Shown: positions 3,534 to 37,889 of the stretch, piece after piece
How the letters are laid out: every line of letters begins with the position of its first letter
Position numbering within the stretch: position 1 is the first letter of the stretch
Virus record (IMG/VR): IMGVR_UViG_3300045988_047443
Coordinates: 1 to 37,889 of that record
Strand: one strand, 5' to 3'
From: a virus
Length of the DNA stretch: 37,889 nucleotides
Notes under the pieces: generated by a model
Database searches by the model: none
What the model saw: the letters and a program-made list of their open reading frames with translations, nothing else
Told to the model about the DNA's origin: nothing
Position numbers and translations under genes: made by a program

Positions 3534-3724
3534 GAACTGTATACCTTATACAATCTATCTTTTAATTCGCCAACTTCACTTCTTAATTTCTTGATTTCTT
3601 TAGCTTGAGTATGAATTGTTTCATCTTTTTCTTTAATCTTTTGAATTAACTCAATATTCTTCCTTCCTAATCTATTGTTTTTAGAAATTAACTCTTTAAT
3701 CCTTTCTTCATAATTCATTTCTAT
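3530..3724 (-). CDS. Coiled-coil hypothetical protein
   Basis: GGAGGTG, then AAATTA, then ATA at 3724. The GTG at 3733 lies inside the SD and the ATG at 3718 is 12 nt away. The start is ambiguous. Confidence 0.5.
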   Translation of the reverse strand: MEMNYEERIKELISKNNRLGRKNIELIQKIKEKDETIHTQAKEIKKLRSEVGELKDRLYKVYSS

Positions 3725-3740
3725 TAATTTCACCTCCGTA

Positions 3741-4328
3741 TTAATTTAATGTCTTTATAAAATCACAATATCGTTTTATATAGCTCCATTTGTTTGAATA
3801 TTTGTAATATTTGCTAGAATGCTCTCCTAAACTTATTTGACTTATCCCTATAACATCTTTACTAGGAATTACTAATACATCTAAAACTTTTTCATCATCA
3901 CTAAGTATGTACAAAATATATATGTCGCAAGTTGGATATATTTTTTCTAAATTGAATGTGTAAAAGCTCCCATTCCTACCTCTGTATAAGGTGCTCGCTT
4001 TTACATCAACTTTTACACATTCATTCACTAAAATATCATACGGATGTTTTGTAGACATTTTAATAGCTTCATATCCTTTGTTCTCTATATAATCCATAAA
4101 TTTCAATTCATATTTTCTGCCGAAATTTGTTCTACTTGGTTTTGATTCCAAATGTAATTCTTTCGCTAAAGGAAACCATAAATTTCTTTTTGAAATTGCA
4201 TTGCCTAATCTTGAATCACCATAATATTCTTCAACTTCTCTTCTTGTAGGCATTCTGTTTAATCCTGTATCAATAATCATTTCTTTGATTTGTGATTTTA
4301 TCTTTTCTTCTGTCCAATGTTCTCTTAT
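3741..4328 (-). CDS. Putative nuclease: homing-endonuclease-associated-repeat-like N-terminus plus PD-(D/E)XK-like core
   Basis: YDILVNECVKVDVKAS is a D...(D/E)xK-like motif. The frame opens after TAA and reads GGAGGTAACTA-ATA at 4328. The ATG at 4280 has no SD. Confidence 0.45.
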   Translation of the reverse strand: MREHWTEEKIKSQIKEMIIDTGLNRMPTRREVEEYYGDSRLGNAISKRNLWFPLAKELHLESKPSRTNFGRKYELKFMDYIENKGYEAIKMSTKHPYDILVNECVKVDVKASTLYRGRNGSFYTFNLEKIYPTCDIYILYILSDDEKVLDVLVIPSKDVIGISQISLGEHSSKYYKYSNKWSYIKRYCDFIKTLN

Positions 4329-4355
4329 TAGTTACCTCCATTTTTTGACAATTTT

Positions 4356-4380
4356 ATTCTATAGTTCGTCAAGCTATAGA
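4356..4380 (-). terminator. Hairpin after ssb (weak terminator or regulatory element)
   Basis: TTCTATAG-N9-CTATAGAA inverted repeat immediately after the ssb stop. Confidence 0.35.
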
Positions 4381-34580: not shown

Positions 34581-35386
34581 GATTTCACCTTGTAAGTCCA
34601 ATCTTTACCTACTTCACCTTTTTCAACTTCATATGCCCAATCTACTAGAATCGCTTGACCATTCTCATCTACTAGTGTTCCATCTTCTGTTAATAGAATC
34701 GTAGTGAAATGATTCTCCATAATCATCTTTTCAATATTTGAAATTCTGTTAGAAAGCTTCCCTGCCGTATCTGCGCCTAATGTATCTTTTACAGTTTCAA
34801 ACCATTCGTTGAATTCTGTTCTATTTGCATTCATTTCAGATTCATTCTGAGCCTTGATTTCTTTGAATAACTCAGTGATTTGAGTAAATAAATCCAACGA
34901 TTGTACGCTCTTAATTGTGCTTGTAACTACTCCACAACGTGTAGAATCTAATCTTGTATCAGTAATATCTGACCCTTTAATTTCACTCGAATTACCTGTT
35001 ACCGTGACTGTAGCTAGTACTAAATCGTAAATAGAATCGTTTCTTGTAATTCCACTATTAATATCACTTGCTACTAAGGAAATGTTTCTGTATGCGTCAT
35101 TATCATTCAATCTAAGAATAATATTGTAGCTTTTAGTTGCAGTATTCTTTTCTAGTGTAATGGTTTCGTCATCCCTTTGCCAATAGAACGCTCCATTAAT
35201 ATTTGCTCGTCCTGCTTTAACTGTTAAGGTTAAGCCTTGAGACTTCTCAACTCTTAAATGGTCTGAACTAGAATCATCTACGAACACTCCATTTGTAAAG
35301 TAGCTTGAGAATAATCTTCTGAAAGCGTCATATAGCACTAATCTATCGCCATTTCTTGAGACGAATGGAAAATATGTAGTTGCTAT
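34577..35386 (-). CDS. Fibre/baseplate-type structural protein
   Basis: The motif FVSRNGDRLVLYDAFRRLFSSYFTNGVF lies upstream of the first canonical codon (GTG 35338). The only start is ATA at 35386 (ATAG overlap with the portal stop). Confidence 0.55.
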   Translation of the reverse strand: MATTYFPFVSRNGDRLVLYDAFRRLFSSYFTNGVFVDDSSSDHLRVEKSQGLTLTVKAGRANINGAFYWQRDDETITLEKNTATKSYNIILRLNDNDAYRNISLVASDINSGITRNDSIYDLVLATVTVTGNSSEIKGSDITDTRLDSTRCGVVTSTIKSVQSLDLFTQITELFKEIKAQNESEMNANRTEFNEWFETVKDTLGADTAGKLSNRISNIEKMIMENHFTTILLTEDGTLVDENGQAILVDWAYEVEKGEVGKDWTYKVKS

Positions 35387-36786
35387 TCTTCGTCATCCCC
35401 CTCTCCATCATCTTGAATTTCTTCACTTAATAATTCAGTTGCTTCTTCTTCAGTAAAGCCGTATTGCTTCATGAAATACATAATCTTTAATCTTGGAATA
35501 TCAAATGTAAGTGCGTCATTTCTTAACGCTTGTGCCGTGCTTTGCTTATCCTCGATATATGTATCGTCATAATCAATCGCAATGTCTAATGAATTGATAT
35601 TAAGCTTTCTGCCTTGTGTCAATTCATAGAAGTACGCTATTGCTTGAATAATATCTTGAATATATGCAGTAGATTCTTTACGTTGTGAGTTAACTTCCTT
35701 CATTGCGTCTTGATTCTCACCGATATATTCTGTAGCCGTTACGATTCTTCCACTTTCAAAGGTGTATTTCTTTGTGCCGAATCCAAACATCATTGATAGA
35801 ATACTTAACGCCGTTTCTAGTGATTGAACAACTTCTGCCATCCTAACTGTTGGATTGTACTCCTGCCATAAAGCTTTTTCTTCCGGTAGCTTATCTCTGC
35901 CTAACTGAACGAATATCTTTTTCATTTGTGGATTCATTTTGATGTTTCCGTCTTTGTCTTTCTGCATTAATGCTTCATTCACAAGAACGATTTTATCGGA
36001 TTTCAACAAATCACGATTCCACATTGTCATTGTTAAATCAATTGTTTTCAAAGGAGCGATTGCGCTCCAAATTTTAGGTAAGCCGTACCCTTGCATTTGT
36101 AAGTTGTTGACCTTTGCGTTTCTCATAATCGCAAACGGCTTAACCACATCTAGTTGAACAATCTGAGCACGGTCTTTTATTTCTTCGCCTGTATCTTTAA
36201 AGTAATGTGTTTCTGCAATATATCTTTCGTCTTGTCCTTTTAAGAACATGACCATCACATATACTTTCTTTAGTTTCTCATAATTTACTCCAACGAAAGC
36301 TACCTCAACGATTTCATCATTTATAACAGTTAATGGGAGGATATTCATTGAATCACAATAGTTGATTCTGATTTCTCCTCCACTGAATGTACCATCTTCA
36401 TAAATCTCGGCATTAGATACCGTCACATAAGCTCCTACCGTACCATTTGCAGACATTTGCTCAACTTGTTTCCTGTACATTACATCAAATCTATTCTTTG
36501 TTAGAATGTCTGAAATAATATCATTTGTAGTACTGTCCTCGGTTGCGTTTATATCTAGGATTTCAATAAGGTTTGCGTCATCCTCGCATAAACGCTTTGC
36601 AAAGTCTGTTTTGTCTAGTGTGTATTCCTCGTTATTTAACGTGTATGCAGTATGAAATTCTGTTTCGGTATTTGTATACCACTTGTTGCACAATTCAATA
36701 ATCTCAATTGCGTTTGTGTCTACATAATACCCTCTATCGTTTAGGTAATTCTGAAACCACGGATTACGTATGTTAGATGTTTCTAT
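35383..36786 (-). CDS. Portal protein
   Basis: Follows terL. AAGGAGG-TAAGAA-ATA at 36786. There is no ATG/GTG/TTG for 31 codons, until TTG at 36693. Confidence 0.75.
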   Translation of the reverse strand: METSNIRNPWFQNYLNDRGYYVDTNAIEIIELCNKWYTNTETEFHTAYTLNNEEYTLDKTDFAKRLCEDDANLIEILDINATEDSTTNDIISDILTKNRFDVMYRKQVEQMSANGTVGAYVTVSNAEIYEDGTFSGGEIRINYCDSMNILPLTVINDEIVEVAFVGVNYEKLKKVYVMVMFLKGQDERYIAETHYFKDTGEEIKDRAQIVQLDVVKPFAIMRNAKVNNLQMQGYGLPKIWSAIAPLKTIDLTMTMWNRDLLKSDKIVLVNEALMQKDKDGNIKMNPQMKKIFVQLGRDKLPEEKALWQEYNPTVRMAEVVQSLETALSILSMMFGFGTKKYTFESGRIVTATEYIGENQDAMKEVNSQRKESTAYIQDIIQAIAYFYELTQGRKLNINSLDIAIDYDDTYIEDKQSTAQALRNDALTFDIPRLKIMYFMKQYGFTEEEATELLSEEIQDDGEGDDEE

Positions 36787-36789
36787 TTC

Positions 36790-37889
36790 TTACCTCCTTA
36801 AATCTATATATCCACTGTGTGTGATAAATGTATAGCAGAACGAATCCCAATCATCATTGATATTGTTTACGTTCTCATCCTTTGGAATGTCTTTCTTTTC
36901 ATCCCATACTAATTCGCTCAATGCATTTATTAAATTCTTACAGTGTTCTTCTATCTTTAGCCTTCCTGTAACAAGTAAGCTATCAACCGTTATAGGGCGG
37001 TCTGTTAGCTCATTCTTCTTGACTGGCGCAATTATACTTCCGTCTAATCCTTCGGCGTAAAAATAAGCTCTAAGCGTGTTTATCAACGTATTAGAAGCAC
37101 TGTCCGGAAATATCCATTCTACATACCCATAACACTCAATACAACGCTTATAGAATCTTACAAACGCCTTACAGAACTTTGTTGCGTCTATTGCATTTGA
37201 CTTTGCCATGTCTCCTTCATCAAGTGCCCACATATAATCCCAATCGTTCGTAAATCCTGTTAAGTGCCATGAATACTTTGAGCCATTGTCTCCAAAGTCA
37301 ACGCCTATGATTAAATGACTGAACCTTTTTCCTTGCTCCTTCATCTTCTCTTTTAAATGTTGATATTTGAATAGGTAAGGTTTGCAGTCATTAGCGAAAT
37401 AAGGGAACACAAGTCCTTCAGCAACCATTCTTTCCCCTAGAATATCTCGCTTGTACCATACTGAATTCATGTCATATTTGTTTTTGATTTCTTCGATTCT
37501 TTCTTGGCTCATTGTAGCATTATCAAATATATTGAAATGCTCATACCTATACCAATCAAATCCCATGAATTTATCTATGTAATTCTTATAGATGTCTGCA
37601 TTTGGGTTTGATGGGTTTAAATCCCATAATGTAAATGGATGTACGCTTGCAATCTGTCTTGCCATAGCTACCTTGATAAAGCTTGTTCTAGAATCCTCAC
37701 AATCGTAATGCTCATTTATTTCGGTCGCTATCCATCCACCATATGAGTTACCTAATATGCTCTTATATGAATTAGACTTTCCACCACCTGTAAATATCAC
37801 TATCTTTTCGCCTGTCTTTGTTTGAACAAATAGTGCTTCGTTTGATTTGTATTTACCCCAACGACACCGCCCACGAAAGATATGTTCTA
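36790..37889 (-). CDS. terL: Terminase large subunit, C-terminal part (continuation of 1-290 across the junction)
   Basis: The frame is open to the window end. 37835-37889 duplicates 1-55. Translation LFVQTKTGEKIVIFTGGGKSNSYKS.... Confidence 0.85.
   Translation of the reverse strand, partial: EHIFRGRCRWGKYKSNEALFVQTKTGEKIVIFTGGGKSNSYKSILGNSYGGWIATEINEHYDCEDSRTSFIKVAMARQIASVHPFTLWDLNPSNPNADIYKNYIDKFMGFDWYRYEHFNIFDNATMSQERIEEIKNKYDMNSVWYKRDILGERMVAEGLVFPYFANDCKPYLFKYQHLKEKMKEQGKRFSHLIIGVDFGDNGSKYSWHLTGFTNDWDYMWALDEGDMAKSNAIDATKFCKAFVRFYKRCIECYGYVEWIFPDSASNTLINTLRAYFYAEGLDGSIIAPVKKNELTDRPITVDSLLVTGRLKIEEHCKNLINALSELVWDEKKDIPKDENVNNINDDWDSFCYTFITHSGYIDLRR
37835..37889. repeat. Terminal duplication, identical to 1-55
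   Basis: Exact 55-nt match. Confidence 0.95.

Follow-up and report, generated by a model that had tools for sequence, protein, structure and literature searches.

ATA start codons and their putative decoding by a phage-encoded, initiator-derived tRNA(UAU)

The stretch of viral DNA considered here, IMG/VR record IMGVR_UViG_3300045988_047443 (37.9 kb, exactly 37,889 nucleotides; about 32% G+C; nearly all genes on the minus strand), is referred to as the window. About 17 of its roughly 65 genes begin with ATA, including those of the small terminase (TerS), portal, major capsid protein (MCP), major tail protein, tape measure protein (TMP), several lysis and tail proteins and some early proteins; the lysogeny genes begin with ATG. 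The window also contains a tRNA gene with the anticodon UAU that is related to initiator tRNAs. That this tRNA is dedicated to decoding the ATA starts is the interpretation favoured here, with a probability of about three in four. Given such a tRNA in the genome, the ATA start becomes a cognate codon–anticodon pair and is no longer an inexplicably poor start. An initial annotation of this DNA had recognised the ATA starts, but the tRNA gene lies just outside the coordinates it covered and was missed, as was a four-base signal, A-ATA, described below.

ATA as a start codon

Fifteen minus-strand coordinates had been listed as ATA starts in the initial annotation. All 15 are ATA and stand 6–11 nt past a GGAGG-like Shine-Dalgarno (SD) sequence, with SD duplex energies of -6.9 to -16.7 kcal/mol (14 of the 15 within -8.3 to -16.7). 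In the eight strong cases the frame opens 0–7 codons upstream of the ATA, with no canonical start codon in between, and the distances given to the next in-frame ATG, GTG or TTG proved exact: 140 codons for TMP, 17 for MCP, 16 for the major tail protein, 31 for the portal, 16 for the gene starting at 35386, 10 for that at 33973, 44 for the HNH endonuclease and 16 for the gene starting at 4328. Seven further cases had been called ambiguous. A canonical codon does lie within the SD, two codons away or upstream without an SD in these genes, and the starts at 3724, 23235, 18219 and 10892 stay ambiguous. Two candidates, at 631 (TerS) and 28054 (also ambiguous), had not been listed. The functional labels held in part: the NUMOD4-like HNH endonuclease was borne out, the gene at 35386, labelled a fibre, matches head-protein families in PHROG, and the supposed nuclease at 4328 matches families of unknown function alone.

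The genes with ATA starts are given below, all on the minus strand (-). A-ATA denotes an ATA start with A at position -1, and haplotypes are those of the relatives.

290..631 (-), TerS, ATA at 631, phrog_309 (TerS) match; A-ATA in 17/17 haplotypes; ATA also in TerS of the relatives L226 and L158
3530..3724 (-), small open reading frame (ORF), ATA at 3724; ambiguous, ATG two codons downstream; A-ATA in 36/36 haplotypes
3741..4328 (-), protein of unknown function, ATA at 4328; phrog_28936 match from residue 4
7558..8298 (-), HTH_36 replication or regulatory protein, ATA at 8298; GTG and TTG alternatives within the SD; A-ATA in 24/24 haplotypes
9005..9583 (-), NUMOD4-HNH endonuclease, ATA at 9583
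10602..10892 (-), small Cys-rich ORF, ATA at 10892; ambiguous, TTG two codons upstream; same ATA start in the relative L191
12621..12749 (-), 42-codon ORF, ATA-ATA at 12749/12746 behind GGAGGTG
16777..18219 (-), endolysin with an N-terminal CHAP-like motif and a GH25 domain, ATA at 18219 with a strong SD
20829..21335 (-), holin, ATA at 21335; a GTG three codons upstream falls within the SD
22363..23235 (-), Dit, ATA at 23235; ambiguous, TTG two codons downstream
23232..25811 (-), TMP with a PhageMin_Tail domain, ATA at 25811; A-ATA in 20/20 haplotypes
26773..27276 (-), major tail protein, ATA at 27276; 28/28 haplotypes
27692..28054 (-), head-tail protein, ATA at 28054; ambiguous, ATG two codons downstream; A-ATA in 28/28 haplotypes
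28935..29804 (-), MCP, ATA at 29804; A-ATA in 26/26 haplotypes
33365..33973 (-), structural protein without an assigned function, ATA at 33973; ATA in 16 haplotypes and ATG in four, each preceded by A
34577..35386 (-), head/virion protein, ATA at 35386; matches to PHROG head-protein families from residue 3; 32/32 haplotypes
35383..36786 (-), portal protein, ATA at 36786; 30/30 haplotypes

For TerS, the SD tagggggt lies between ATG 655 and ATA 631, and the ATG, eight codons upstream, has no SD. The endolysin start is open to two readings, as ATG 18273 overlaps the upstream stop codon, which would allow coupling, while ATA 18219 has its own SD. A downstream start at ATG 18132 would remove the GAYGSQCWD motif. 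Gene calls for this protein differ between assemblies (498 vs 451 aa), and the 451-aa call drops the CHAP-like catalytic motif.

The frequency of ATA was assessed gene by gene among ORFs of 60 codons or more whose best SD was -9 or stronger. The window yielded ATG 30, ATA 15, GTG 3, TTG 3, ATT 0 and ATC 0; within its genes ATT is four times commoner than ATA (310 vs 79). Strong-SD starts across the relatives comprise ATG 653, ATA 283, GTG 33, TTG 21 and ATT 7, and ATA makes up 25–30% of starts in the phage family. Mean SD strength is slightly higher for ATA genes than for the others (-11.9 vs -10.9).

Homologues place the protein N-termini at the ATA codons. The MCP genes of five other phages, Eggerthella phage PMBT5 and Ruminococcus phage RG-TP1 among them, have an ATG at the codon aligned with the window ATA, and the N-termini read M-[AP]-N-x-I in the homologues and I-P-N-Q-I in the window. 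Portal homologues retrieved by tblastn align from residues 2–15, upstream of the TTG at codon 31. The comparison of homologues that had been proposed as a check thus came out in favour of ATA for both proteins. In the HNH endonuclease, NUMOD4 occupies residues 3–46 (profile positions 1–49 of 49, E=7.6e-12), wholly before the next canonical start at codon 44. Variation in nine of the N-terminal extensions was analysed in 38 IMG/VR relatives and further contigs from ENA and Logan. Variable sites are distributed 47/27/135 over the three codon positions (p=3e-21); the TMP extension shows 29/16/81.

These observations bear on the suggestion that the proteins start at the next downstream ATG, GTG or TTG, the SD and ATA being coincidental or regulatory. 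Public gene calls do use downstream codons, and at 3724, 23235 and 28054 a canonical codon lies two codons off and could share the same SD. The suggestion is nevertheless very improbable, as homologues cover the extensions, NUMOD4 lies within one of them, and the 47/27/135 pattern extends through them; moreover, the downstream codons lack an SD, and starting there would lose the catalytic motif of the endolysin and 140 codons of TMP. The expected truncation is found in public assemblies, where the portal is called at 436 aa, the MCP at 272 aa and the TMP at 719 aa with a 440-nt gap.

The 17 ATA starts are kept across the haplotypes of the relatives (up to 36 distinct), with 33973 polymorphic for ATA and ATG. 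ATA-carrying contigs come from the IMG/VR sets 3300045988, 33000292xx and 3300029539, from ENA and Logan, and from other metagenomes, and their flanks are up to 19% diverged. Because the codons recur in every haplotype of independent assemblies, an assembly-specific miscall is ruled out; identical ATA codons in assemblies from many studies likewise refute, as far as sequence data can, the systematic ATG-to-ATA miscall against which the initial annotation had warned. A broader form of this objection, in which ATG was miscalled through sequencing, assembly or DNA modification, or the starts decayed in a dead prophage, has prior expectation alone in its favour, together with the fact that G-to-A is the commonest substitution. 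It is hardly credible, since dozens of contigs from separate projects share the codons despite diverged flanks. The sole motif shared by the sites is A(-1), yet elsewhere in this genome ATG preceded by A was called without error at start sites; the ORFs are intact and under purifying selection.

Inside genes, ATA behaves differently. None of 93 internal ATA sites varies to ATG, while 13 vary to ATT and seven to ATC; for all other NNA codons in the family, A/G changes dominate at the third position. ATA/ATG polymorphism among the relatives is confined to two start sites, 33973 and 33114, the latter being ATG in the window. Therefore, internal ATA is isoleucine as in the standard code, and ATA interchanges with ATG only at initiation. 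Reassignment of AUA to methionine in the phage or its host has a mitochondrial precedent, and host ATA positions are aligned to Ile in 24%, Met in 17% and Val in 16% of cases, although these figures come from a handful of codons. With 20 internal changes to ATT or ATC and none to ATG, and with three distinct CAT tRNA genes kept by the host, one of them of the Ile2 type, such a reassignment can practically be dismissed.

Homology, NUMOD4, the codon-position pattern, conservation and the start-only polymorphism agree with the original proposal that ATA is the real start of about one gene in five, abundant virion proteins included. For at least the eight clear genes and TerS, this evidence makes initiation at ATA nearly certain.

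The tRNA(UAU) and the base preceding ATA

The tRNA gene has the following coordinates.

3105..3180 (-), initiator-derived tRNA gene, anticodon UAU, CCA encoded

ARAGORN called no tRNA on the window, but it calls tRNA-Ile(TAT) in the relative L042, and aligning that region revealed the same gene at 3105–3180. Rfam model RF00005 matches positions 3108–3180 with 48 bits (gathering score 29) and flags 1:72 as a non-pair. The anticodon loop, CUUAUUA, places U at position 37. The anticodon is UAU in all 39 extracted copies, where an initiator would have CAU. A Watson–Crick 1:72 pair is lacking: the window family has A1xA72, and the relatives L158 and L226 have C1xA72. Among the sequences compared, 1:72 is unpaired in seven of eight initiator-like sequences and G:C in both elongators. 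In bacteria, a 1:72 mismatch blocks use by EF-Tu and directs formylation. Alignment with the host tRNA-fMet shows that the formylase determinants G2:C71, C3:G70, A73 and A11:U24 are kept, and the D stem GAGC/GCTC is common to both. Identity to Erysipelotrichaceae tRNA-fMet amounts to 57–64 of 78 positions, compared with 41–54 of 78 for six other host tRNAs, the Ile2-type tRNA among the host genes reaching 42/78. As 1:72 is unpaired, position 37 is U and the body does not resemble tRNA-Ile, the molecule differs from an elongator tRNA-Ile(UAU).

Covariation supports the cloverleaf. The anticodon stem occurs in the family as two alleles, which are told apart by three compensatory changes of base pairs, and 94.8% of cloverleaf cells are paired, compared with 74.8% in shuffles. 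An apparent tertiary covariation at 18:55 sets the window family (A18, G55) apart from L191 (G18, U55). The phage tRNA clearly descends from a host-type (Holdemanella) tRNA-fMet, with the anticodon changed from CAU to UAU and position 37 from A to U. A sequence search found this tRNA in no GenBank phage, the best phage match being a mycobacteriophage tRNA-Met (78%).

A separate observation concerns the T stem. In the T stem of Erysipelotrichaceae tRNA-fMet, GUUGG/CCUUC, U faces U at 50:64 and at 51:63, a feature conserved across genera (L056, 8577–8653, and orthologues in L065, L067, L084 and L097). The phage tRNA restores A:U at these positions and adds a bulged base.

The ATA starts share a preceding base. 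In the window, A occupies position -1 at 17/17 ATA starts and at 21/40 canonical starts (p=4e-4); family-wide, counting unique contexts, the figures are 127/132 and 258/434 (p=7e-19). The five exceptions look like internal false positives. Across haplotypes the -1 base varies at ATG starts and never at ATA starts. At site 33114, the two ATA haplotypes have A at -1, whereas most ATG haplotypes have C. The tetranucleotide A(-1)-A-U-A is the exact complement of U37-U36-A35-U34 in the tRNA, from which we infer that A-AUA acts as a four-base start signal that co-evolved with U37. Reading A(-1):U37 as a fourth pair is in line with a published model of extended codon–anticodon interaction at initiation. 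Position +4 is G in 94/132 unique ATA contexts and in 92/434 ATG contexts, and the second codon is biased towards GCN (Ala), these contexts not being independent of one another.

The tRNA and the ATA starts occur together among the relatives. Wherever a relative's locus extends over this position, the gene is present (33/33), and it was also found in 34 IMG/VR family contigs. It also occurs in a second lineage, represented by the metagenome contig L226, whose portal and MCP are 61% and 54% identical to those of the window. Its tRNA is diverged but of the same design (C1xA72, UAU, U37, U31.G39), and five of its 12 strong-SD starts are A-ATA at the opening of the ORF, including those of TerS, portal and MCP. 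L158 and L191 likewise combine the tRNA with A-ATA starts; L189 and L191 were the real hits of a pattern search for the D arm plus CTTATTA, which otherwise gave mostly chance matches. No such tRNA is present in MT835795, a partial contig with an MCP 52% identical to that of the window, or in the complete RG-TP1 genome, and each of these has at most one or two plausible ATA starts.

Proposed initiation at ATA and its alternatives

We infer the expression, charging, formylation, P-site use and biological purpose of the tRNA from its sequence and setting. A short transcription unit of its own, placed where the early genes meet the packaging-late genes, would supply the tRNA, which would then be aminoacylated, more likely with isoleucine, although methionine is possible. 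Recognition by isoleucyl-tRNA synthetase (IleRS) and methionyl-tRNA synthetase (MetRS) is dominated by the anticodon, and anticodon-swapped E. coli initiators, as studied by Schulman and by RajBhandary, reportedly take the amino acid of the new anticodon, which favours isoleucine on the phage tRNA. The charged tRNA would be formylated and kept off EF-Tu by virtue of its 1:72 mismatch and of G2:C71, C3:G70 and A73, which it has kept. On mRNAs that have a strong SD, IF2 would bring it into the P site of the 30S subunit, and A(-1)-A-U-A would pair there with U37-U36-A35-U34. Internal ATA would be decoded as isoleucine by a host elongator tRNA. With internal ATA read by the host and the lysogeny genes on ATG, it would therefore be the efficient translation of ATA genes that depends on the phage tRNA. 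This amounts to a natural orthogonal initiation system in which tRNA(UAU) reads A-AUA through U34–U37, proteins probably start with formyl-isoleucine, and synthesis of virion and lysis proteins depends on the tRNA. In this full form the proposal is rather likely, if held with less assurance than the decoding alone.

Several purposes are conceivable, namely a translational late switch, silence of lytic genes in the lysogen, escape from a shut-off or defence aimed at the host initiator tRNA, or general independence from that tRNA. ATA starts cluster in the late genes for virion and lysis proteins and the tRNA lies at the early/late boundary, but six early genes also begin with ATA. The late bias, the ATG starts of lysogeny genes and the position of the tRNA would fit a late switch or the insulation of lytic genes; the six early genes weigh otherwise.

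The strongest alternative accepts the ATA starts and assigns them to the host. Here, tRNA-fMet(CAU) would read ATA as a near-cognate codon with the help of a strong SD, and the phage tRNA would be an elongator tRNA-Ile for internal AUA. Near-cognate reading has precedents: in Staphylococcus aureus infC, ccpN and citZ, AUA with an extended SD initiates at 10–30% of the AUG level with the normal initiator (PMC13009471). Occasional SD+ATA sites in phages lacking the tRNA, such as RG-TP1 at 14681, the ARAGORN label tRNA-Ile(TAT) for L042 and the slightly stronger SDs of ATA genes also speak for it. However, the tRNA resembles tRNA-fMet and not tRNA-Ile, keeps the 1:72 mismatch and lacks A37. An A(-1) that is invariant and matches U37 at ATA starts only is not explained by an initiator with CAU and A37. 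ATA accounts for 25–30% of starts in this family, compared with none in the sampled host region and 0–2 per related genome without the tRNA. ATT and ATC are equally near-cognate, yet they are unused in the window scan, and it is the most abundant virion proteins that start with ATA. This alternative is accordingly considered unlikely, though it deserves more weight than the others. The two modes could well operate side by side, and decoding by the tRNA plausibly evolved by way of near-cognate reading.

Some points weigh against decoding by the phage tRNA. The whole mechanism is drawn from sequence. Early genes with ATA starts would need to be translated before or while the tRNA accumulates. 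Of the three G:C pairs that mark the anticodon stem of initiators, one is left in the window allele (A29:U41, G30:C40, U31.G39) and two in the L042 allele (G:C, G:C, U.G), and G30:C40 is the sole invariant pair; a pattern search of IMG/VR found no UAU tRNA with the canonical three-G:C stem. U37, G55 and a D-loop without GG are unusual, so that behaviour in the P site and towards IF3 cannot be assumed. With the anticodon UAU the tRNA should be no substrate for MetRS, and with U37 it lacks t6A37, a determinant for IleRS, which makes the amino acid uncertain. Initiation at AUA in S. aureus and what look like sporadic ATA starts in phages without the tRNA imply that the tRNA may boost initiation without being strictly required. 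The absence of ATA starts from the Holdemanella chromosome was established for about 20 kb of a single region in 10 species.

Comparison with known systems helps to place the phage tRNA. Bacterial tRNA-fMet is its nearest sequence and shares the unpaired 1:72, G2:C71, C3:G70, A11:U24, A73 and G30:C40. In contrast, the phage tRNA is phage-encoded, has UAU in place of CAU and U37 in place of A, retains one (window) or two (L042) of the three G:C pairs, and has an altered elbow (D-loop without GG; G55). The near-cognate AUA and AUU starts of S. aureus infC, ccpN and citZ and of E. coli infC resemble the phage starts in their strong or extended SD and, for the former, their low-GC Firmicute background (PMC13009471). 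They concern a few regulatory genes per genome and are inefficient on purpose, whereas here ATA starts 15–17 genes in each genome, those of the most abundant proteins included, and accounts for 283 of the roughly 1000 starts with a strong SD among relatives; a cognate tRNA and A(-1) accompany it.

Engineered anticodon-mutant initiator tRNAs, amber and other non-AUG types, have been described (PMC11744186). The phage tRNA follows their principle, but it is natural, conserved, apparently co-evolved with dozens of genes and equipped with a potential fourth pair, U37:A-1. In the work of Schulman and RajBhandary and in later synthetic biology, changing the anticodon of an initiator is said to move initiation to the codon that complements it, the amino acid usually being the one that the new anticodon specifies. 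Mitochondrial AUA initiation also involves a change at anticodon position 34 (tRNA-Met with f5C34). There, a single tRNA serves both codons, AUG and AUA, at initiation as well as during elongation, and AUA stands for methionine everywhere, whereas in the phage internal AUA stays isoleucine and a separate initiator-type tRNA has a genomically encoded U34. Lak and crAss-like phages use suppressor tRNAs to recode stop codons during elongation. In both situations a phage tRNA would alter codon reading and late genes in particular would depend on it, but the phage considered here would add a start codon. Ordinary phage elongator tRNAs similarly carry anticodons for codons rare in the host; they lack the initiator architecture of this tRNA, which correlates with start codons and not with internal usage.

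Among bacteria and their viruses, initiation at AUG, GUG and UUG through one initiator tRNA(CAU) is regarded as all but universal. Neither a non-CAU initiator tRNA encoded by a phage nor a systematic use of ATA starts by phages was found described in the full-text literature searched, a scope outside which most subscription journals fall. If correct, the proposal would give the orthogonal initiators made by engineering their first counterpart in nature. It would also add a new level to the control of phage genes, comparable to the recoding of stop codons by suppressor tRNAs, and a new route to proteins that start with a residue other than methionine. The A(-1):U37 match would offer a direct natural test of the long-debated extended codon–anticodon pairing at initiation. 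There are also practical consequences, as gene callers truncate or miss ATA genes, leaving portal, capsid and tape-measure calls wrong in public assemblies, and tRNA finders miss tRNA(UAU) or label it tRNA-Ile.

Phage, host and neighbouring features

The window phage is identified as a temperate siphovirus-type phage of about 38 kb that infects Holdemanella (Erysipelotrichaceae), a human-gut Firmicute. The virion genes are arranged as TerS, large terminase (TerL), portal, head proteins, scaffold, MCP, connectors, major tail protein, chaperones, TMP, Dit and Tal. A holin and a GH25 endolysin serve lysis, an integrase and a repressor serve lysogeny, and the early region encodes ERF, SSB, RusA, HNH, dUTPase and helix-turn-helix proteins. 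The host assignment follows from the prophage junction contig L052, in which the integrase adjoins bacterial genes for NanE, two PmbA/TldD proteins and SseB that are 97–99% identical to those of Holdemanella biformis, H. porci and H. hominis. The insertion point lies about 160 nt downstream of host SseB (L052, L055–L064) and about 4.5 kb from a host cluster of seven tRNA genes (Arg, Pro, Met, Ile2-type, Ser, fMet, Phe) that includes the initiator tRNA gene. A near-identity search returned no matching DNA among GenBank phages, and a portal scan of GTDB genomes gave no confirmed relative.

The TerL ORF leaves the window at its high end (36790–37889), and in the relatives the gene order carries on into the low end (1–290), so the genome is regarded as circularly permuted. 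When the ends are joined, the TerL frame opens just 383 codons before its stop, compared with 445 aa in the relatives, and the ends are not cleanly joinable.

Hairpin terminators flank the tRNA gene on both sides. A gene resembling sigma region 4 immediately precedes it, and the packaging genes follow:

3004..3022 (-), hairpin resembling a terminator, some 85 nt past the 3' end of the tRNA
3204–3220, second hairpin, upstream of the tRNA
3207..3533 (-), small gene weakly similar to region 4 of sigma-70, in every case the immediate upstream neighbour of the tRNA

Matches of the small gene are weak (Pfam Sigma70_r4, E=0.008; NCBIfam sigma families, E about 1e-3; PHROG transcription regulators), and it is conserved at 95–100% in 96 loci beside the tRNA. 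Its product is possibly a regulator of late genes. An attachment-site role of the tRNA is unlikely, the integrase being 11 kb away, and A-to-I editing of AUA was set aside as a poor fit, the TadA-like UACG context being absent.

A radical S-adenosylmethionine (SAM) protein of 435 aa with a CX3CX2C motif at residues 32–39 is encoded at 775–2082 (minus strand), the third gene downstream from the tRNA, with a ParB_N gene and TerS as its neighbours. It resembles PA0069/Rv2578c (E=1.5e-19, under the curated cut-off), and a sequence search of the PDB gave no relative of solved structure. A role as an obligate partner in modification of the tRNA was rejected, as L226 lacks the gene and some family members have a 28%-identical one in its place.

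In RG-TP1 (L177, PQ571303.1), plausible SD+ATA sites are located at about 14681 and 32444, in a phage without a UAU tRNA. One sequence, gtgggagtgta ATA gca, would lengthen the annotated coding sequence 14858–15070 upstream. These sites suggest low-level ATA initiation in other phages of gut Firmicutes.

Genes for tRNA-fMet-like molecules with UAU were also encountered in unrelated contigs of 27–68% G+C (L243, L274, L276, L260/L291, L249, L206/L295, L211/L302, L217/L228 and L232, and L139/L156 from IMG/VR). Several of these tRNAs keep three G:C pairs and A37, and their short flanks contain no obvious SD+ATA starts. Such a strategy may thus be more widespread among metagenomic lineages.

Finally, the human-faecal phage contig MT835795.1 (L176) carries two type II hammerhead ribozymes and a RAGATH-28 RNA at 241–312, 895–968 and 8186–8277.

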